Below are positions 8,680-61,032 of a stretch of DNA of 64,000 bases, in pieces. The notes under the pieces are model-generated. The model was not told where the DNA came from. It ran no database searches and saw nothing but the letters and a program-made list of their open reading frames with translations. Within the stretch, counting starts at the first letter, position 1. Each line of letters begins with the position of its first letter. Where the stretch lies: positions 8,710 to 72,709 of the forward strand of contig JAEUVP010000557.1 in NCBI GenBank assembly GCA_016786805.1, written 5' to 3'. The translations under genes and the position numbers were made by a program. The stretch is from Chitinophagaceae bacterium (GTDB lineage Bacteria; Bacteroidota; Bacteroidia; Chitinophagales; Chitinophagaceae).

Positions 8680-8867
8680 TGGTAGTAATGTATGGTCAGT
8701 TTTCAATTGAAAATCACTTCCAAACTGTACCCGCAAAGCCATACATTTACCAGCCAGATGTCCTTAACTCATAACAGTCCCGGCATCCCGGCCTGCCATT
8801 TTCATGTTGACGCTGAGCTGTTCCTGTCAACTGGTAAGAAAAATTATCTGGTCAACAAACAATCTTT

Positions 8868-51252: not shown

Positions 51253-52275
51253 ATTGGTTCTTTTTATAGGTGAAAAGATGCCGGCAAATTCAATCGAACC
51301 AACTTACCAAACAACCGTATTAATACGGATAGGCACAGGGAGCTTACCACATCCTGACACCTGACTCGGTATTGATTAGCCTCAATGTAACAAGCAACAG
51401 GAAATCAACACTAAAACAAATCAAACACAAAAAACGACAATTCATTCCGCACATTATTTCGTTTGTATAGAAGGAGGCCCAGTTCACCCATTTTCAGTAA
51501 TTCCACGGACAGGTAATTAGTAAAATCAATCCTGTTTATTTCTTTTATCATTTCTTTAAAATAAAACATGTAATTAAAGATGGGGTACAGTTACCCCAAG
51601 CTGCCTATTTGTATGGAATAACCCAAAATTCATAAGTATAGAATACTTTGTCGCAAATTCATTTACCAATGGCAAATGAGATCACCTAACATTACCCCTT
51701 GCTGTCAAGGTGTCCTCTAACAGTACATTATACATTAAGACTACTTCATCCAACCCTTGTTTAGTTTGGATAAGGATATCCATAACGGACTATTTCATCC
51801 TTAATGGCTTTTGGTTGTGAAAATCGAAGGGTATTGATTTATGCAGATTGACAGACAATCCACATACAGTTCCTATTGCACCATATCACTTTATCCGGAT
51901 TCATCATAGCAAATTTCGTGGCAAGAGCTTGACTGTTGATTTGAAATTCAATACGATCTTAAGGTCTGATCAGGCCCTTTATGACCAGAGGGAATCCGTG
52001 AAAATACGGATGTAATCATAATTAAGATTCTTTACATTTAAACGATTTTAGGAATTAGAATCTTTTCAAAAAACCAATTTTTACCGCAATTATTTTTTTT
52101 CTCAAAATAGAGAAATATAAAACCCGGTTTTCATTATGTATGGCCCCTCTGGCCTGCATGATATGCTAAATATATGTTTGAAACAAAAAAGTAAATCAAC
52201 CCAGCTGACAAATTGTCCAAATACAGCCCAACCATTACCTAAGAATTCGCAATACTATAACCATACTCACAGATT

Positions 52276-54579
52276 ATGGCTCTCTTCAAAGATATTTTGG
52301 CATTAAGAGAAATCTCAGACAATGTTCTGAGAGGTTATAAATTTGAACAAACTATAAGAGAAATCCAGCCCTGGGATAGAAAACCACCGATAGCTGCCAC
52401 ATTACCATCCGAACAGTTGGATGGCATTTTTCTCTGGAAAGATCAGGCCTATTTAATTGAATCAAAGGCAAAACATGATATCATAACGCCAGGGTCACAC
52501 GACTGGGAAGACTTTGAATTAAAAATTCGAAAACGGAAAAATACAGTGATCGGATTGTTTTGTTCACTTTTTCCGGTCAGCGAAAAGCTATATGAACATG
52601 CAGAACAATTAAACAAAGAAGGGCATTTTGTTATTGTTCTGGCTGGGCACATTTGGGATGAGTTGAATCAGTACCAGCTTCCAATTAAAGACTTGCTGGA
52701 ATACATGAATTTATTTAGCAGAGTAAAATTTATGGCTAGGCCGCCTGGGATCCAGATAATTCTTGACTGGTGTTACGATAAAGAGACAACTCAAAACAAG
52801 ATAACTAACTTATGTAAACGAAATTCTTCTACATTCCTGAGGAGACATAAATCGCCATTTCACTCCTCACTATACATAACAAGAGATATTGACATTCAGG
52901 TTCATGCATTTTCCAATAACCTAAAACCCTCAACGTTACAGAAGGAAAAAGAGAAGCCAAAACAAATTTGTTTAATACGAGACTACTCAGGCTCTGGAAA
53001 AACCACATTATCTCTGGAAATAGCAAGCAGCCAGGAAATATACTGTGGAACTGGCCTTACCGCTAACGAGCAAGATATCGATGAACGATTTGCTGATTTT
53101 TTTAAATCACTGGGAGACAACTATGGCTTGCTTGAAATCATCTCATTAAATAAACCGCTGGTCTTTGTAATTGACTCCCTGGATGAGGCTAACCTGGATT
53201 TGCAGAAAAAGAAAAAAGAAATTCTTTCCATTCTGAAATTCATTGAAGAGGACCTAAACAATGCTGCTGAATTACTAAATCTGCTTGCCTATCCCTTGCT
53301 TGTGATCTTTACTATCAGGGAAGACTACTGGCGTGATTGGGAATCAATATTCGAAGGCCGAAAAAGAAATGATATTAATAAACGAATTTCTTCCTTTGCT
53401 ACTGATGAGTTACCAAAGGCTATTCACAATTACTCAAAATGTTATAGTTATTCTATAATTAATGAAATAAGTGCAGAATCAAAACGGGTGCTTTCCACAC
53501 CGATCAACCTGCTTATATTCTCGGAGACATATAAATACTACGGGGATATTGAAATTGAAGAAATTTGGGAAGGTAATGTAATAGACACTTATTTTTCGAG
53601 AAAGAAGGAAGATATTTACAAAAGGTACATTCAGGGCTTCACTTCAAAAATATTCTTTCAACTCATTTCTCTGCTGGCCTTCCATACTGTATTAACAAAA
53701 AAAAACGCTGTTAGTAAAAACGAAATTGAGTATATAATAAACGTCAACTTCCCGATCCTGAACCCATACAATGACGAAATAATAAATGCGATTGTCTCGG
53801 AATTAATACTAATTCAGGATTCTGAAAATCTGAATCAATTAAGATTCCGGCATTCACGATTTATAGAGTTCTTACTTGCATATTACATTGTATCTTCTAT
53901 TGAGAGAGAACGATCCCTTAACAAACTTGACTACTTTGCAAAAATTTCATTTGAATCAGGTATTGTATTAATGTTCAGGGTCCATGACGACATCAGATTC
54001 ATTGGGAAAACAAAATTTCCGGAAATAGTTTACCAAATAGAAGACTATTACTCAAAGTCCAATTTCTTTATGTCAAAGAAATTATTGCGTCTCCGGTCGG
54101 ATCTATCAGTGAGCCTGACAACAGGGAAAGAGGATGTTGAATTGATATTGCGAAATACAAATAGCAATGACCCGGAATTGATTTCAAATGCCTATTTCGT
54201 AATTGTGGCAAAAGCTAATCATCAACCGCAGGAAACGGTTTTGAACTTATTTATTGCATCATTTAAGAGTTGTCCAAAACTCAATGAAAGGTATAAACTG
54301 ATCGCTAAACTCGAGTATCATAATCTACTGCTGCATGAAGCAGTCTTGGATTGCATACTCCTTTCGAACCTTAGCAAGGATTGGGAGGTGTTTTTGGGAC
54401 TTATCTTAAAAAACCGGCTAAATAAAGAATTCAAAGAGTTGTGGGAGCAATCGGACAGCAATACAAAATTGGAGAAAATTATTAAAAGCACCTTTACAGA
54501 AGATTGGCGTCAGGTTATAAGACTCAGAAAGTCAATTTTAGAAAACACAATAATGGTTTTGGGAGAGCTTGAGGATTGA
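52276..54579 (+). CDS. NACHT/STAND NTPase with an N-terminal PD-(D/E)xK (Mrr-like) nuclease module and a helical C-terminal region
   Basis: N-terminus GYKFEQTIREI...LDGIF...YLIESKAK (D...ExK). Walker A DYSGSGKTTLSLEI. Walker B LVFVIDSLDEA. NACHT-type LLVIFTIRED, STPINLLIFSE and winged-helix RFRHSRFIEFLLAYY. Confidence 0.8.
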   Translation: MALFKDILALREISDNVLRGYKFEQTIREIQPWDRKPPIAATLPSEQLDGIFLWKDQAYLIESKAKHDIITPGSHDWEDFELKIRKRKNTVIGLFCSLFPVSEKLYEHAEQLNKEGHFVIVLAGHIWDELNQYQLPIKDLLEYMNLFSRVKFMARPPGIQIILDWCYDKETTQNKITNLCKRNSSTFLRRHKSPFHSSLYITRDIDIQVHAFSNNLKPSTLQKEKEKPKQICLIRDYSGSGKTTLSLEIASSQEIYCGTGLTANEQDIDERFADFFKSLGDNYGLLEIISLNKPLVFVIDSLDEANLDLQKKKKEILSILKFIEEDLNNAAELLNLLAYPLLVIFTIREDYWRDWESIFEGRKRNDINKRISSFATDELPKAIHNYSKCYSYSIINEISAESKRVLSTPINLLIFSETYKYYGDIEIEEIWEGNVIDTYFSRKKEDIYKRYIQGFTSKIFFQLISLLAFHTVLTKKNAVSKNEIEYIINVNFPILNPYNDEIINAIVSELILIQDSENLNQLRFRHSRFIEFLLAYYIVSSIERERSLNKLDYFAKISFESGIVLMFRVHDDIRFIGKTKFPEIVYQIEDYYSKSNFFMSKKLLRLRSDLSVSLTTGKEDVELILRNTNSNDPELISNAYFVIVAKANHQPQETVLNLFIASFKSCPKLNERYKLIAKLEYHNLLLHEAVLDCILLSNLSKDWEVFLGLILKNRLNKEFKELWEQSDSNTKLEKIIKSTFTEDWRQVIRLRKSILENTIMVLGELED

Positions 54580-54912
54580 AAAGCTCACAACCCGGAAAGC
54601 ATTTTTTTTATATGGACCTGGATAGGGAAGTGTTCAGGTTTTTCTACCATATAAGGGCATCCTCATTTTTTTACAACTTACAGGAAGGGGTCTGAGGACC
54701 CGCATATACGAGTATTTGTGGAAATATTTATTACAAAACAACTGAGTCCAACCTTTTACAATGTAATGAGATATTCCCGTTTGGATTTACCACGATAAGA
54801 ACTATTATCTCCTGCTCTCCACTCCCTAAATTAGTAATGCAAAAATGGTTTCCAAATCAAATGCAGGGCTCATGCACGCTAAACAAATGTTAGGGTTACA
54901 GAGGATCATTCC

Positions 54913-56379
54913 CTACCCCCTGATCACATACTCCACATAACAACTTCCCTGGGCAAAACTGTTCGTAAACTCCTTTTTTTCTTCCCGGGTCAGTTGTCCC
55001 CGCAGTTCCTTGGCTTTCGCAGCCGTTACCACACCCTGGTCGGTTCTGATCAATCTCCCCTTTGTTTTATCAATAAGTACTTTGTATAAAGGCTTGGCCG
55101 GAAAATTGGTCGAGCCTCCCCATTCCTCCGGTATCGCATTCTGAATTAAAGGCATCATCGCAACGAGGTCGGGACTCTTGACATATTCCAGCCCGCTCAC
55201 CGAAGCAGTTCCGTTATGACTGCCATGGTGTCCCACTTTATAAAACACAGTATGGTTCAGTAATTCAACAGTGGTCTTGCCACCATTGTCTTTTAGCTGT
55301 TGACTGACATCCGGTTTATGCCATCCCATCCAGTTCCCGGATTGTGCATCACCTGGCAACAGGATCACCCGGCCGCTATCTTCAAATTCAATCGCCATGG
55401 CTAAGCTGGTATTATTCGTCAATCTCGTGGCTTTTAAAGCAATCGAAGCAGAGGTTTCCAGCCAGTCGGTTTCGATCTGCCGCCACGCAAAGGCTTCGGA
55501 ATTGTAAACCTTATTGAATGCCCGGATAGCAGCCGCATCCATAAGGAATTCATCCGCAAAAGGGGATCTGCCTTCCACCAGGTCGATCCCTGTATTTAAT
55601 AGTCGCTCTTCTTCGGGCATTTCACCTTCATCGGTGGGGCTGTTCATCGCCAGGTGGTACATTTCCTCATCTTTCAGGGCGATCTTGAAAAACTTCATGT
55701 CGCGGTCCCGTGGAGGACCCAGCATAAAAAACTTCATGCCTTCGGCACCGGTAATATCTTTAATAACCTCACCGGGTAGCCGGTATTGAATTTTTCCCTT
55801 ATTCCGCACATAGTCCATTGCCTGGTCATTGGTGGGCTTGGCCCCCTTGAGGGCTTTTTGGCCAGGTTCAAAACCTAATTCAAAATGAACCAGGTTACGG
55901 GTGTTTTGCATGCTCAGTTTTCTCTTTTCCAGGCGTTTTCCGGCATCCTTAACCGGGGGTAAAACTTGGTTGGTATTCCCCATCACCTGCAGGGCACGGT
56001 CAGCATGGTCCTGTAAACGGGCCAGTGTCTTTCCGAATTTAGTTTTCAAAACTTTGGCAACTGCATCATTCTTATTTTCGATCCAGCTCATCCAAACATC
56101 CTTGACAGTGATCTGGTCAAATATTGTCTTTGCCTGGTTAAAACCAGATACATGATCAAGATGCTGATGAGTCACGACCAGCAGGTCTAATTTCCCGCCG
56201 CAGGTCTTTTGAATATCCAGCACCGCGGGACTGATCTTCGCAGTACTCGTACTGAAACCACCACAATCGATTAGCATACTAAAACTCGTTTGACCCTGCT
56301 TCTGGAATAATAATAACAGGCAATCGCCCACCGAACCGGTATCATACATCCGGAATTTAATCGCATCAACTTTACTCAT
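54913..56379 (-). CDS. MBL-fold metallo-hydrolase (ComEC-like signature), cytoplasmic
   Basis: LLVVTHQHLDHVSGF (HxHxDH), LLPGDAQSGNW, YKVGHHGSHNG. About 270-aa insertion between motifs. No signal peptide. ATGA overlap with the upstream gene. Confidence 0.8.
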   Translation of the reverse strand: MSKVDAIKFRMYDTGSVGDCLLLLFQKQGQTSFSMLIDCGGFSTSTAKISPAVLDIQKTCGGKLDLLVVTHQHLDHVSGFNQAKTIFDQITVKDVWMSWIENKNDAVAKVLKTKFGKTLARLQDHADRALQVMGNTNQVLPPVKDAGKRLEKRKLSMQNTRNLVHFELGFEPGQKALKGAKPTNDQAMDYVRNKGKIQYRLPGEVIKDITGAEGMKFFMLGPPRDRDMKFFKIALKDEEMYHLAMNSPTDEGEMPEEERLLNTGIDLVEGRSPFADEFLMDAAAIRAFNKVYNSEAFAWRQIETDWLETSASIALKATRLTNNTSLAMAIEFEDSGRVILLPGDAQSGNWMGWHKPDVSQQLKDNGGKTTVELLNHTVFYKVGHHGSHNGTASVSGLEYVKSPDLVAMMPLIQNAIPEEWGGSTNFPAKPLYKVLIDKTKGRLIRTDQGVVTAAKAKELRGQLTREEKKEFTNSFAQGSCYVEYVIRG

Positions 56380-58412
56380 AATACAGCATTTTGAGGTTCA
56401 TGAATAGCAGCAAAAGGTTCCGTACTCCCAGGAGGTGCAAAGCCGATCTTTTCAGCATAGTCTCCAAGCATACAGCGGTATTGCATCGCAATTCTCCAGG
56501 GATGATACGCAAGGACCCTACGACCGCGGGTAGTCTTCATCGCAGGATCGAAAATGGGTTTGCAGATTGCATGTTTCAGCATTAGGTCATTCAGGTCAAA
56601 GATCAGGGTACAGCCCCCGCGAAAGGTAAACCGGTCCAGTTCATCGTTGGTCTTACTTTTTGTATAAGGGACATAAAGCTTCTTGTCCCCCGGCGCATCC
56701 TTTACCATTACAGTGCATCGTTGCATAAGCGTCATGATGATCTGGTTCTGTACCTGGCCATCGGGTCCGGTGCGGTTATGCATCTTTAAGGAATGTAATT
56801 CGATCGAAGGCACATCAATAGCAGCGCCATCCTGGCGGTTCATACGGGAATGACCGATACCCAGTTTTTTGAATGAGGAGGAGAAGACCAGGCCGGTGAT
56901 ATTTTCAAACAACTTCGGATTTTTCCAGAATACTTTCTGGCCAAACAGGTACCGGTAAAATCCCGGCTGGTCTTCTTCATCATTACCGGTAATAAAGTCC
57001 TGCGTAATGTCGAAAATTTGCCGGCGGTCGGTCTTATAGGCCAGTTGTTCCTTGAACTTTCGCAAGTAATCGCTGATCTGTTTCATGAACCCGGTTTTAT
57101 CTGCCGTTTCCGGCAATACATTATAACAGAGTGTATCAACAGATAAATTGGGAACGCCTTCAGGGAAAATACCGCGCTTGCGGAATGCATTGATAAATGC
57201 GATGCGATAATGGTGATCATCATTCAGCACTAATTCTTTATCGGCCGTGATCAGGGCACGCAGGTAATCGCCGTAATTCAGGTCAACAGGCGGGCAATAA
57301 TCAAGGGCTCGTACACACATACATAAAACATGGGAAGCAGCCTTGGAAGCTTCATCCGCAAGCCGCCCCACTAGGTCTGGATGGATATCACCTGCAGGCA
57401 TCACGCCAGTTCCACCGGTCGCTATACGAAGCAGGTCGGCCGTCCTGTTCTTATAGATAGCGACAAAGGCATCGAAGACAGCAGAGACAAGCAGGGCCCC
57501 GCGGTCATGACATTCGATCATGGTTTCATAATCTGCAGTACTCGGTACTTTCGGAATCCAGGTACCGTTGGCATCAGTGGTACCGATGGCATCCCGGAGA
57601 GAATGGTACTCTCCGGTACTCTGTCCAAATTCGACAGCTAATTTCCCAAGCATGCTTTCGGCATGCAGCTTTCCCTGTGTTTGCCGTATTTCATTCTTCA
57701 CGATTTCGGGATATGTAAAATGTTGCAACAGGGCAATGATATCAGCGAATCCCTCATGGAAACCAGCCATATCGGGATGCGATGTTTCCATATAGCGAGG
57801 GTACATCCCATCCAGGATGGCATGGGTCGTTTCATGGGCAATGATATCATGGGAAAGACAGGAATAGACAATACCACCCGGCAAAAAAGTTCCTCCTTTG
57901 GCAGGAGTGGCATTATAATAACCAAACAACAACGCTTTCCGGTCAGGACTATAATAGGCATTTTGTTCCCGCACAGCATGGGGGTAGACCAGCAGTTTCT
58001 CCACGAATTCCGTGTACATCTTTCCCTTCCGGCCATTCTTCTCTTTCCTGAATTTCTGCACATTGCTCCACATCACTTTACGCCCCAGTGCCATCTCAAA
58101 ATTTTTAATGGTGTTCATCACCACGGCATAGACCATTTGCTGGTGAAACTGCGGGTTCGTTTCACTTGGCGTCAAGCCATCCGAAGCCAGTATGGATGGC
58201 TCATTTAGATCAACCGGCTTATACACTGCATTGCTCGCGGGGTCACGGTCGATCACTTTAATATAATCGCCTTCCGGGCCCGGTAGCAACTGAACTTCCC
58301 AGGGAATTTTATAGACGATCTCATTAATATCAGCAGTGCTCAGGTTAAGGGAAGTACTCGGATCGAAAGCATATCCTTTGAGTTTCCTGAACGGGGGTCT
58401 GTTACCTGGCAT
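56376..58412 (-). CDS. thermolysin-like (gluzincin) zinc metallopeptidase with an unassigned ~300-aa C-terminal half
   Basis: EQNAYYSPDRKALLFGYY, DIIAHETTHAILDG (HExxH), GFHEGFADIIALL (third ligand Glu). N-terminus MPGNRPPFRKLKGYAF has no signal peptide. Confidence 0.8.
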   Translation of the reverse strand: MPGNRPPFRKLKGYAFDPSTSLNLSTADINEIVYKIPWEVQLLPGPEGDYIKVIDRDPASNAVYKPVDLNEPSILASDGLTPSETNPQFHQQMVYAVVMNTIKNFEMALGRKVMWSNVQKFRKEKNGRKGKMYTEFVEKLLVYPHAVREQNAYYSPDRKALLFGYYNATPAKGGTFLPGGIVYSCLSHDIIAHETTHAILDGMYPRYMETSHPDMAGFHEGFADIIALLQHFTYPEIVKNEIRQTQGKLHAESMLGKLAVEFGQSTGEYHSLRDAIGTTDANGTWIPKVPSTADYETMIECHDRGALLVSAVFDAFVAIYKNRTADLLRIATGGTGVMPAGDIHPDLVGRLADEASKAASHVLCMCVRALDYCPPVDLNYGDYLRALITADKELVLNDDHHYRIAFINAFRKRGIFPEGVPNLSVDTLCYNVLPETADKTGFMKQISDYLRKFKEQLAYKTDRRQIFDITQDFITGNDEEDQPGFYRYLFGQKVFWKNPKLFENITGLVFSSSFKKLGIGHSRMNRQDGAAIDVPSIELHSLKMHNRTGPDGQVQNQIIMTLMQRCTVMVKDAPGDKKLYVPYTKSKTNDELDRFTFRGGCTLIFDLNDLMLKHAICKPIFDPAMKTTRGRRVLAYHPWRIAMQYRCMLGDYAEKIGFAPPGSTEPFAAIHEPQNAVL

Positions 58413-58453
58413 AGTAGATGATTAAATTTGAAACAAAAATTATTAGTGATGTA

Positions 58454-59746
58454 CTATTGAAATAAGGACGGACAATATAATTTCACCTGCAACTCTGTTA
58501 GCGCTTCCGCTTGTTTGATCAGGCAATCAACTTCTTGTTTCGAAAGTGCTGTCAGGTTAGTACTGACCGAACGGGCAATCTTCTTTTCCTCCGGTGTAGG
58601 TTTAGGTATAGCATCATATCCCAGCCGGTTTTTTAAATAGGTAGTGATCTCCGTTTCATATTTCCGTGGAGCTGCAACCCACTCTGGCTTGAGCTGGTGG
58701 GCATCAATTACAAACCGGGTAATTTGTTGTTTATCCAGGTTGGTAATGAATCCGCTGATACAATTTTCTGTATCCCAGCCAAGCGAAAAATAAGCAACCT
58801 GTTTATTGACAGTGGAAGCATTATCATACACATTACGGACCATCTGGCTTTTTTTGATTCTTGACATAAATACATTCACCGTTTCCATCAGCAGGGAAAA
58901 AGTATTTTTAAAGGACATTTCACCCGAAGATCCACAGCCTGCATCACTGGTAATCACAATGCCACAGTTATACTGCCCGCTTTGCATCACTTTATGGATT
59001 CCCTGGTTATCATAAACACCGCCATCCACTAATACAGGGTGTACTTTACCTGCTTCAGCCTCATCGTCGAAGAATTCTTTATCAATAGTAACTGGTGTAA
59101 AAGCAAATGGCACGCAACTGGAGGCCATGACAGCTCGGGCTAACGGGTACTTGGCAGGCTTGAACTTTATCGGATCATCCATATACTGGTAAGTGGAGTC
59201 CTGCATCCAGTCCTTGGAAAAAGAAAAGGGCTTTGCCGTTTGCAGGTTCGTTGACCCGATCACAAGCGTAGGTTGATCCGGCAACTGTCCCAGCATAAAA
59301 TGCTGATAGAAAAATTCATCATAGATCTGTTCGATCCGTTTACTGATCGGGAATAACTGGAATTGAAACTTCAATAATACAAGTAGTAGTAACACAATGG
59401 CAATAGGAAATAGCCATGCATAGGAAGTGAACAGGAAATAACCGGAGCCAATAAACAACAGGAGAAAAACCAGGAAACGAAGCCCCATCCAGGACAACAA
59501 AATTCTCTTGATGACATTCTTTGTTTGCAGCCCCGAATACAAATCCTGGTAAAAGGCATCAAAGTCACCCTTTCTTGAACAATAACAGGCACCGGTAATG
59601 GAACCACCCGAGATCGTCGAAATGACGTTAACCCGGGAAAGAATACCCAACTGCTCTAATTTTTTTAAAGTACCGAGGTGAAAAGCAGTGGCGCGGTAAC
59701 CGCCACCGGATAAGGCAATGCCAATACGATCTTGGTGAAAGGACAT
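58454..59746 (-). CDS. patatin-like phospholipase with an internal transmembrane hairpin
   Basis: IALSGGGYRATAFHLG (oxyanion hole), VISTISGGSITG (nucleophile region), LVDGGVYDNQG (catalytic Asp). Two hydrophobic helices LRFLVFLLLFIGSGYFLF and LFPIAIVLLLLVLL lie between the Ser and Asp motifs. Confidence 0.85.
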   Translation of the reverse strand: MSFHQDRIGIALSGGGYRATAFHLGTLKKLEQLGILSRVNVISTISGGSITGACYCSRKGDFDAFYQDLYSGLQTKNVIKRILLSWMGLRFLVFLLLFIGSGYFLFTSYAWLFPIAIVLLLLVLLKFQFQLFPISKRIEQIYDEFFYQHFMLGQLPDQPTLVIGSTNLQTAKPFSFSKDWMQDSTYQYMDDPIKFKPAKYPLARAVMASSCVPFAFTPVTIDKEFFDDEAEAGKVHPVLVDGGVYDNQGIHKVMQSGQYNCGIVITSDAGCGSSGEMSFKNTFSLLMETVNVFMSRIKKSQMVRNVYDNASTVNKQVAYFSLGWDTENCISGFITNLDKQQITRFVIDAHQLKPEWVAAPRKYETEITTYLKNRLGYDAIPKPTPEEKKIARSVSTNLTALSKQEVDCLIKQAEALTELQVKLYCPSLFQ

Positions 59747-59880: not shown

Positions 59881-61032
59881 ATGAAGTTCCGGTTATCGTT
59901 ATTTGCAATTGTAGTATTGGTTCTTGCAGGTTGCAAAAAAGATCCCCCTGCTCCACCTGCTCCTGCTGTTGCCTCCTTCACGATCAACTGTGCGGCCGTA
60001 ACGGTGCAGGGAACTTATACGGGTGGTTTAACATTGAACAATACAAATACTATTACTGTTCCGGTGAATGTAACACAGGTGGGAACCTATTCGGTGAGCA
60101 CCGCCACGATCAACGGTATTACATTTTCCGGATCAGGTTCATTCAGCACTACGGGTAAGCAGTCAATAACTTTGCAGGGAACCGGTATCCCTGTCAATAA
60201 CAGTACGTATTTTTATTTGATATCCGCAGGAGCAGCAACCTGCAGTTTTCCAGTCTCCATCATAACTGCTCCCTCCGGCAATTTCGACAATGATCATATG
60301 TTGTTCGGTAATCCCAGCCGTGCTGCTACAATCATTGACAGCACCCGCAATTACCTGTTGCGCAAACAATACTATGCACTTTCGTATAATAAAGACCGGG
60401 GCACACCTAACTGGGTCAGCTGGCATTTGTTTCAGAATGATCTCGGCAGTACCTCCCGGCAGGATGATTTCCGCACCGATAATACCTTACCTGCTGGCTG
60501 GTACCAGGTTCCCGCCAATGCGTTTTCCGGCAGTGGTTTTGACCGTGGCCACAATTGTCCTTCGGGCGACCGCACGTCCTCGGTGGATGCGAACTCCTCC
60601 ACGTTTCTGATGACCAACATGATCCCGCAGGCACCGGTGATGAACCAGGGAATTTGGGCGAACATGGAAGACTCCTTACGCAGGTTGGTGAACCAGGGCA
60701 ATGAAATTTATATCATCATGGGTTCATATGGTACCGGTGGTACGGGAAATAACGGGCCAGCGACAACAGTGAACGGCGGCAATGTAACGGTACCATCCAC
60801 AGTCTGGAAAGTGGCCCTGGTCCTTCCCAACGGCAACAATGACAGCAGCCGCGTGGATAACAACACAAGACTCATTGCAGTAAACATCGCGAACTCCAAC
60901 AGCTCAACAGGAAGCTGGAAAAATTACCGCACCAGTGTCGATGCGATTGAAGCCGCCACCGGGTACGACTTATTGGACCGTCTTGCCCCAGTGTTACAGG
61001 GTGTGATCGAAGCGAGGGTGGATAATTTGTGA
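59881..61032 (+). CDS. secreted DNA/RNA non-specific endonuclease (DRGH beta-beta-alpha-Me family) lipoprotein
   Basis: Lipobox VLVLAGCKKD. N-terminal ~130-aa beta-rich domain. SGFDRGHNCPSGDR and LMTNMIPQAPVMNQGIW catalytic motifs. Confidence 0.85.
   Translation: MKFRLSLFAIVVLVLAGCKKDPPAPPAPAVASFTINCAAVTVQGTYTGGLTLNNTNTITVPVNVTQVGTYSVSTATINGITFSGSGSFSTTGKQSITLQGTGIPVNNSTYFYLISAGAATCSFPVSIITAPSGNFDNDHMLFGNPSRAATIIDSTRNYLLRKQYYALSYNKDRGTPNWVSWHLFQNDLGSTSRQDDFRTDNTLPAGWYQVPANAFSGSGFDRGHNCPSGDRTSSVDANSSTFLMTNMIPQAPVMNQGIWANMEDSLRRLVNQGNEIYIIMGSYGTGGTGNNGPATTVNGGNVTVPSTVWKVALVLPNGNNDSSRVDNNTRLIAVNIANSNSSTGSWKNYRTSVDAIEAATGYDLLDRLAPVLQGVIEARVDNL

Follow-up and report, generated by a model that had tools for sequence, protein, structure and literature searches.

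A nuclease–NACHT protein of a Chitinophagaceae bacterium as a candidate NLR-like antiphage sensor-effector

Gao and colleagues are said to have reported in 2022 that Avs3 and Avs4 bind a phage protein, which leads to tetramerization and nuclease activation. A second described type is represented by bNACHT25 and bNACHT32 of Escherichia coli, which combine a restriction endonuclease (REase) domain, a NACHT module, and NCH1 (clade 6 of Kibby et al.). Defense by bNACHT25 and bNACHT32 needs the PD-(D/E)xK active site and is abolished by D48A, and bNACHT25 depends on the host protein DnaJ, which mediates sensing. Here, we compare these systems with a nuclease–NACHT gene located in a 64,000-nucleotide stretch of DNA from Chitinophagaceae bacterium (GenBank assembly GCA_016786805.1, contig JAEUVP010000557.1, forward-strand positions 8,710 to 72,709). 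This whole stretch is referred to as the window, and positions are counted from its first letter. Its protein has the same order of parts as bNACHT25/32, namely an N-terminal PD-(D/E)xK nuclease, NACHT, and a short helical C-terminus without repeats, and both are single genes. The sizes are close (752 aa compared to 767 aa for the window protein), and the catalytic aspartate lies at nearly the same position (D48 in bNACHT25 and D49 in the window protein). The window protein is an uncharacterized addition to an already known class rather than a new kind of system, and it most probably serves as an antiphage sensor-effector related to animal nucleotide-binding leucine-rich repeat proteins (NLRs).

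The window gene is real and intact. The start of its 767-aa open reading frame (ORF) matches the N termini of full-length relatives in the alignment, and 138 homologs were identified in the protein database, many at E = 0, most of which are 765–790 aa long and align end to end. The main family alignment contained 34 sequences with a lowest identity of 35%. Residues E24, D49, E62, K64, G239, G241, K242, T243, D300-S-L-D-E304, T346, and R348 are invariant in this alignment, and the window protein has all of them. The motifs quoted in the original prediction, which was made from the sequence alone, were all located at their places in this frame: GYKFEQ (residues 20–25), EQLDGIF (46–52), LIESKAK (60–66), GSGKTT (239–244), VFVIDSLDEA (296–305), VIFTIRED (343–350), STPINLLIFSE (407–417), and RFRHSRFIEFLLAYY (523–537). 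The parts of the gene are as follows.

52276..54579, plus strand: complete nuclease–NACHT gene, 767 aa, stop codon included (ORF list, 138 homologs, and AlphaFold2 (AF2) model with a mean predicted local distance difference test score (pLDDT) of 90)
52276..52680, plus strand: N-terminal PD-(D/E)xK nuclease-fold domain, aa 1–135, presumed effector (fold topology, Foldseek neighbors, and invariant residues)
52345-52347 (E24), 52420-52422 (D49), and 52459-52467 (E62-x-K64), plus strand: catalytic-type residues of the N-terminal domain
52501-52524, plus strand: invariant DWEDFELK helix, after the catalytic-type residues
52681..52959, plus strand: helical linker, or region preceding the nucleotide-binding domain (NBD), aa 136–228 (secondary structure; the hhalign alignment begins at residue 195)
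52960..53361, plus strand: P-loop NBD, aa 229–362 (invariant columns and alignment to bNACHT25 motifs)
52990-53007, plus strand: Walker A GSGKTT (K242 at 52999-53001)
53173-53187, plus strand: Walker B with the NACHT signature D300-S-L-D-E304
53311-53319, plus strand: T346-x-R348
53362..53913, plus strand: helical domain 1 (HD1) and winged-helix domain (WHD), aa 363–546 (hhalign and Foldseek)
53494-53526, plus strand: STPINLLIFSE, with P409 invariant
53842-53871, plus strand: RFRHSRFIEF (conserved H526 at 53851-53853)
53914..54576, plus strand: C-terminal all-helical region, aa 547–767, presumed sensor or regulatory region (11 helices in the model)
51400..54900, no strand: low-G+C segment, ~32–40% compared to 43–50% around it, covering the gene and its noncoding flanks (200-nt composition profile)

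The switch module spans aa ~195–546 and includes Walker A GSGKTT, Walker B VFVIDSLDEA, FTIRED, STPINL, and RFRHSRFIEF, in which R525-H526 is near-invariant across the 34 relatives. NACHT is distinguished from other signal transduction ATPases with numerous domains (STAND NTPases), in the account given by Kibby et al., by the Walker B signature D[GAS]hDE, in which the Mg-binding aspartate is followed by a small residue and, one position further, by two acidic residues (Kibby et al.; Koonin and Aravind 2000; Leipe 2004). D300-S301-L302-D303-E304 fits this signature and is invariant in 34/34 relatives, which places the module, on sequence grounds, among the NACHT-type STAND proteins. The bNACHT25 family was represented by WP_001702659.1 from an E. 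coli genome and an alignment of 28 sequences. Comparison of the full families by hhalign aligned ~425 columns (residues 195–667 with 181–636 of the bNACHT25 family, probability 95%, E = 3.9e-8), and the nucleotide-binding oligomerization (NOD) modules alone gave a probability of 96% and E = 1.5e-9. The two families have in common the paired Walker A, the Walker B D[GS]xDE, T[SI]R, TP(I), and an F-x-H-x-x-F-x-E winged-helix motif. In the last of these, RFRHSRFIE[FY] pairs with FkHRTFAEYF of the bNACHT25 family (H506), and Kibby et al. describe a hyperactive bNACHT25 obtained by mutating the histidine equivalent to H443 of NLRC4.

Structure comparison led to the same type of protein. Foldseek with the full-length AF2 model (pLDDT 90, predicted template modeling score (pTM) 0.77) ranked Avs4 (8dgf) first with E = 5.4e-9, followed by ~30 NLR NACHT structures (NLRP3, NLRP9, NLRC4, and NOD2, among others), with Cdc6/Orc and FtsH far lower in the list. 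The Foldseek matches and the RFRH526 alignment together showed the NBD, the helical domain, and the winged helix with its conserved histidine that make up a STAND module. A PDB sequence search with the single sequence gave no match, the full-length profile gave a weak NLRP14 match alone (E = 0.054), and Pfam returned NPHP3_N, nSTAND5, nSTAND3, and NACHT for the window protein below threshold at E of about 0.01, with nSTAND3 and NPHP3_N scoring similarly to NACHT. Because single-sequence searches nearly fail, the case is carried by the alignment, the profiles, and the structure. As a separate observation, a near-invariant arginine precedes an invariant aspartate family-wide at R235-D236 (nt 52981-52983 for D236), giving RDxSGxGKT, at which bNACHT25 retains glycine.

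In the N-terminal domain, G20, F23, E24, Q47, D49, E62, K64, A65, and K66 are invariant in the alignments, followed by an invariant helix with W77-E-D-F80...K83. Residues 1–172 were modeled at pLDDT 95.3 and pTM 0.91, and the modeled core follows alpha-beta-beta-beta-alpha-beta, the topology of PD-(D/E)xK nucleases. E24 lies in helix 16–30, D49 at the start of strand 2 (residues 47–54), and E62-x-K64 on strand 3 (residues 57–64), after which the model continues with helix 75–86 and strand 91–97. The structural neighbors in the PDB identified by Foldseek are almost all PD-(D/E)xK nucleases, including the Cdn1, Can2, and Card1 nuclease domains, VC1899, MspJI, Nt.BspD6I, EndoMS/NucS, AF1548, HindIII, McrC, the Cas4-family ACE1, and Avs4. 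Among viral structures in BFVD, the top matches were phage ‘restriction endonucleases’ (best E 4.3e-5, template modeling (TM) score 0.55, root-mean-square deviation 3.9 Å over 131 columns). The assignment of the nuclease fold is sound because the list of structural matches is consistent and the motif is invariant, and residues 1–135 are therefore predicted to have the superfamily core and motif of a PD-(D/E)xK nuclease. The catalytic-type residues E24, D49, E62, and K64 are thus in place when properly aligned, and the restriction-endonuclease-type N terminus of the original prediction held with respect to the fold.

A more specific assignment to Mrr_cat found no support in Pfam. Mrr_cat (PF04471) gave no match at thresholds of E ≤ 1 for the window protein, E ≤ 0.01 for the 34 relatives, and E ≤ 10 for 20 N-terminal domains searched in isolation, and the Mrr label that UniRef and Kibby et al. 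attach to some relatives or look-alikes is not reproduced by the current model. NERD (PF08378) alone showed a weak signal, in 6 of 20 N-terminal domains of relatives (best E 0.025), and had no match in the window protein. A profile search with the N-terminal domain alone recovered only fragments of its own family. Accordingly, this is a family-specific PD-(D/E)xK domain without a Pfam model. Designed TIM barrels matched by the N-terminal profile in the PDB (1e-4) were dismissed as spurious, as a 30-residue helix–strand segment is repeated four times in these targets.

A nuclease joined to a P-loop module could also be an NTP-dependent, type IV-like restriction enzyme working in the manner of McrBC, in which the P-loop powers DNA binding or translocation and the nuclease directly cuts modified or foreign DNA with neither a trigger nor a signaling oligomer. 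Two relatives are indeed named ‘Restriction endonuclease type IV Mrr domain-containing protein’ in UniRef, MspJI and McrC are among the structural neighbors of the N-terminal domain, and type IIG restriction-modification (RM) genes adjoin some relatives. However, the NTPase has the features of a STAND switch and not of a translocase, as indicated by the ADP-contacting histidine motif of the WHD, by D[GAS]hDE, and by Avs4 and NLRs as best structural matches. Pfam detected no DNA-recognition or modification-reader domain, and the replacement of the nuclease by a caspase or a death-like adaptor in relatives would be senseless for a DNA-tracking enzyme. We consider such a restriction enzyme unlikely.

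These replacements became apparent from the family as a whole. An exhaustive profile search of 1.84 billion representatives yielded 568 proteins at E ≤ 1e-3, of which 110 reached E ≤ 1e-30; many are fragments, and the family is small. It is scattered over at least seven phyla (Bacteroidota, Acidobacteriota, Planctomycetota, Verrucomicrobiota, Actinomycetota, Methylomirabilota, and Proteobacteria), and one copy lies on a conjugative Azospirillum plasmid. Several relatives are named ‘NACHT domain-containing protein’ by NCBI. Three relatives (P0277, P0278, and P0280) have a caspase-like Peptidase_C14 domain in place of the nuclease, and a fourth (P0115) has the bacterial death-like domain bDLD1 there, while the NACHT module and C-terminus are shared at E ≤ 1e-112. 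A further relative (P0253) carries an EAD11 adaptor ahead of the nuclease. A large subgroup of ~1,057 aa (P0036, P0067, P0082, and others; loci L019, L021, and L022) has an added C-terminal DUF7829 at about residues 835–1057 (Pfam E down to 7e-58), which is absent from the window protein and may be an added sensor domain; no mention of DUF7829 was found in the literature searched. Since relatives swap and add domains in this way, the N terminus appears as an exchangeable effector and the C terminus as an extendable input region. Mean pairwise identity is highest in the nuclease domain (50%) and amounts to 47% in the NBD, 40% in HD1, and 31% in both the WHD and the C-terminus. This gradient is the pattern outlined by Kibby et al. 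of a stable NACHT module with a diversifying sensor region.

The swapped domains also bear on a different role, that of a STAND-controlled module for regulated cell death or conflict that answers non-phage cues such as mobile elements, kin/non-kin discrimination, or stress, as in the death-domain/caspase STAND systems known from multicellular bacteria. Kibby et al. cite apoptosis-like conflict systems (Kaur et al. 2020, 2021) in which caspase, bDLD1, and EAD11 domains typically occur, and the copy on the conjugative plasmid would agree with this role. Against it, the neighbors of relatives are specifically known antiphage systems, and the tested proteins to which the switch module is most closely related, bNACHT25 and bNACHT32, both act against phages. 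The two roles also overlap, as abortive infection is itself regulated cell death. A module answering non-phage cues is thus rather unlikely, and an antiphage role is better suited to the gene neighborhoods.

To characterize these neighborhoods, 115 proteins flanking relatives were searched with PADLOC. At E ≤ 1e-10, matches included GajA/GajB, PtuA/PtuB, ThsB, AriA-like ATPases, type IIG RM, a DRT reverse transcriptase–helicase, Old, DrmMI, mad3, HEC-01, and PDC-S05, giving roughly ten defense proteins among the 115. Ordinary neighborhoods are expected to hold far fewer. All-against-all clustering across 25 loci identified no neighbor family present in at least three of them, and for this reason, the gene looks like a single-gene system that acts alone. 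The effector swaps, the defense-gene neighbors, and the patchy distribution together support the label of defense candidate given by the original prediction. Its bNACHT/Avs-type wording stands in so far as the protein is NACHT-type, whereas it falls into no Avs family of PADLOC.

The composition of the gene suggests an acquired origin. As had been predicted, the gene is more AT-rich than its surroundings, and the hand-counted G+C values given at the time (21/60, 16/60, and 28/60) were exact. Its G+C content of 36.2% compares with 43.1 ± 3.7% in the other 56 ORFs of the window (z = −1.9), and the gene ranks third lowest of 57 in G+C and eighth lowest in G+C at third codon positions (GC3). Within the window, the anomaly is real but moderate, and not unique. 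Across 24 genome loci, two of which are near-duplicates, G+C in the family gene falls below that of its flanks in 22 and by more than 4 points in 19 of them, with a gap of up to 28 points in Hymenobacter bucti (31.5% compared to 59.9%). Repeated horizontal transfer is strongly supported at the family level, for which the family-wide low G+C is better evidence than the z-score of the window. The recent acquisition proposed earlier is therefore strong for the family but only moderate for the window, where neither a tRNA nor an integrase was found around the gene and repeats were short and at chance level, with no convincing flanking direct repeats. No Rfam family was present around the gene; a miRNA Rfam match nearby was dismissed (E = 0.88).

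Upstream of the gene, positions 51253-52275 form an AT-rich stretch of ~1 kb with no ORF of at least 60 aa, no Rfam match, and promoter-like sites at chance level, as in the sigma-70 promoter scan. A Bacteroidota-type −7 motif TAnnTTTG (TATGTTTG) lies at 52173-52180; this motif is not enriched in the window. The corresponding gap in relatives is about 90–270 bp, and the stretch may derive from a gene that has decayed or from the insertion event. This unusual noncoding stretch, the foreign composition, and the lack of any RNA sequencing run with the locus in a sequencing-run search would suit a decaying or domesticated acquired gene without current function, or a nuclease domain that now serves as a noncatalytic DNA-binding or regulatory part. 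We regard this as very improbable, however, as the full-length ORF has all family-invariant catalytic-type and switch residues, and conservation within the family peaks in the nuclease domain, pointing to selection for catalytic activity.

The C-terminal region is the presumed site of input. The ~220 residues from 547 to 767 form 11 helices in the full-length model. They gave no Pfam match at E ≤ 1, no internal repeat when the two halves were compared by hhalign (E = 0.049 over 13 columns), and no similarity to NCH1 (hhalign E = 0.48), which agrees with the short, unassignable C-terminus without repeats that had been predicted. K242 and H526 of the window protein are 284 residues apart. The corresponding distance between the Walker A lysine and the WHD histidine in NLRP3 we take to be ~290 residues, and crystal structures of the NLRP3 NACHT alone are covered almost fully in the Foldseek alignments. 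This spacing and coverage suggest that the first ~100 residues of the region may be helical domain 2 (HD2) of the NACHT module, with the remainder as only a small cap. It is conceivable, though doubtful, that the protein is a ‘minimal’ NLR without a repeat sensor, in which ~220 fast-evolving helical residues sense infection in a mode new for nuclease-NLRs. Such a protein may guard a host factor, in analogy to bNACHT25 with DnaJ, or its variable WHD/C-terminal surface may recognize a new phage trigger.

Although bNACHT25 is alike in its parts, the window protein falls outside bNACHT clade 6. The two proteins have no pairwise similarity (BLASTP E = 1.9), and the nuclease domains of their families have no detectable relation (hhalign E 0.14–0.42, with 12–15 columns around the ExK lysine). 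NCH1 (PF22728) is present in bNACHT25 (2e-38) and in all 120 listed bNACHT25 relatives, whereas it gave no match at E ≤ 1 in the window protein and none in the domains of 120 relatives from the window family. Lacking NCH1 and having an unrelated nuclease domain, the window protein was rejected as a clade 6 member. bNACHT25 lies in a Rac-like prophage, whereas no relatives of the window protein were found in phage genomes by tblastn or in viral contigs by scanning, and carriage of the family by phages or prophages is thus unsupported. In the bNACHT25 locus (L025, E. coli NZ_CP091756.1, 2680525-2688923), ydaT, ydaV, and DUF1627 precede the gene and an IS3 transposase follows it, and bNACHT25 occurs in 17 of 5,426 complete E. 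coli genomes.

A better fit was found in clade 2, to which Table S1 of Kibby et al. assigns proteins labeled ‘REase+NACHT’ or ‘Mrr_cat+NACHT’ from Hymenobacter (WP_157567192.1), Thalassomonas (WP_044834066.1), Planctomycetes (KAF0246040.1), Deltaproteobacteria (PKN68616.1), and Kibdelosporangium. Their coordinates fit the window protein, with REase at ~17–133 and NACHT from ~214–289 to ~703–737 and nothing after it. Hosts of the two groups overlap in Hymenobacter, Planctomycetota, Desulfobulbales, and Alteromonadales. In addition, the nearest NACHT relatives outside the window family are HEAT-repeat proteins, as in clades 2–3 of that table. On the basis of these domain coordinates and host taxa, the window protein probably belongs to the clade 2 ‘REase/Mrr_cat+NACHT’ group. 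None of these clade 2 accessions occurs among the homologs of the window protein. The supplements of Kibby et al. contain no accession of its relatives, and cluster look-ups did not connect the two groups. The tested clade 2 proteins bNACHT20, 27, 30, and 37 have other architectures. bNACHT27 was rejected as closest tested relative, being 1,473 aa long and similar at Walker B only; it has no defended phages in the supplementary table of Kibby et al.

Avs4 and animal NLRs are likewise comparable in logic and fold. SeAvs4, the best full-length structural match, also matches the isolated N-terminal domain (E = 2e-2), and like the window protein, it joins an N-terminal PD-(D/E)xK effector, Mrr-like in SeAvs4, to a STAND switch. 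However, Avs4, at ~1,540 aa, binds the phage portal through a large TPR-like sensor, whereas only ~220 helical residues follow the WHD in the window protein. Membership in an Avs family as modeled in PADLOC v2 was rejected, as there is no match to an Avs model and no TPR-like sensor of at least 400 aa, and the likeness to Avs4 is structural only. A Cas11 match in PADLOC was spurious (E = 0.038). NLRP3, NLRP9, NLRC4, and NOD2 match the fold of NBD-HD1-WHD, and probably HD2, at Foldseek E-values of 1e-8 to 1e-6, and they have both D[GAS]hDE and the winged-helix histidine at a sequence identity of 10–15%. Unlike animal NLRs, the window protein has no leucine-rich repeats and no PYD or CARD adaptor, and its effector enzyme is fused in cis. 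In the description given by Lee et al. 2026, 589 STAND clades were obtained by clustering only sensors of at least 400 aa, and because of this limit, the C-terminus of the window family would fall outside that clustering.

On the basis of these comparisons, the window protein is proposed to be a single-protein, NLR-like antiphage sensor-effector. At rest, its NACHT module would bind ADP through K242, D300, and H526, and the protein would be monomeric and autoinhibited. Upon infection, the variable WHD/C-terminal helical region would be contacted by a protein of the phage or by a host factor that the infection perturbs. Nucleotide exchange would then open the module and lead to oligomerization via the NACHT domains. 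In the oligomer, the N-terminal PD-(D/E)xK domains would come together, become active as nucleases, and cleave DNA without discrimination. As an outcome, the phage DNA would be destroyed and/or the cell would die before phage release (abortive infection). The oligomerization-driven activation, the DNA substrate, and the antiphage role are modeled on bNACHT25/32 and Avs3/4. We give this statement as a whole, mechanism included, a probability of about 0.7. Taken by itself, an antiphage role is fairly likely, again by analogy, and the architecture of nuclease, NACHT, and C-terminus is very likely. This architecture was already part of the original prediction and was borne out by D[GAS]hDE, the profile homology to bNACHT25, Foldseek, and the N-terminal model.

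Several observations weigh against this proposal. The Pfam check suggested with the original prediction failed, as NACHT (PF05729) scored 15.5 bits in the window protein compared to a cut-off of 26.7. Most relatives are also under the Pfam NACHT threshold, with 6 of 34 matching at E ≤ 0.01 (best 1.5e-5), and the window protein matched no NCBIfam or PADLOC model. We read these scores as those of a divergent NACHT, to which the Pfam model is insensitive. Walker A deviates from GxxxxGK[ST] in that its first glycine is the invariant D236. For the nuclease domain, the Foldseek E-values are modest (best 1.3e-3 in the PDB and 4.3e-5 in BFVD, TM 0.4–0.55), and the predicted active site is defined by motif and fold topology. 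The C-terminal region, the presumed sensor, is short, and part of it is probably HD2. The window is also not an obvious defense island, as its genes are ordinary apart from a cluster adjacent to the gene, and the missing RNA sequencing runs count here as well.

This adjacent cluster of three genes occupies 54913-59746 on the minus strand, directly downstream of the NACHT gene and convergent with it. Its genes and the one beside them are as follows.

54913-56379, minus strand: 488-aa protein with a metallo-beta-lactamase (MBL) fold, whose N-terminal ~100 aa match the PADLOC LmuA and Avs1a models
56376-58412, minus strand: 678-aa HExxH-motif protein without a match in Pfam or among PDB sequences
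58454-59746, minus strand: patatin-like phospholipase
59881-61032, plus strand: 383-aa protein with a lipoprotein-like N terminus and Endonuclease_NS (DNA/RNA nonspecific endonuclease, E = 5.5e-50), beside the patatin gene

The HExxH and MBL genes overlap by 4 nt, and the pair also occurs together on a Hymenobacter plasmid (MBL partner E = 3e-64). With the HExxH protein alone, tblastn matched 65 plasmids, mostly of Rhizobium, Sinorhizobium, and Agrobacterium. The MBL/HExxH/patatin cluster may be an uncharacterized conflict or defense module.

The known picture of nuclease-armed STAND/NACHT immunity is unchanged by this protein, and its architecture would not surprise a specialist. If active, it would add a family that occurs mainly in Bacteroidota and environmental bacteria, and that PADLOC v2 misses, to the bacterial NLR-related defense. 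Being compact and having a family-specific nuclease and natural effector swaps, the family is tractable for asking how NLR-like proteins without repeats sense infection, and the caspase and death-domain swaps could be used experimentally. If the protein were indeed a minimal NLR, the long DUF7829 paralogs, together with the variants that carry caspase or death domains, would illustrate the rewiring of a single compact sensor core to varied inputs and outputs.

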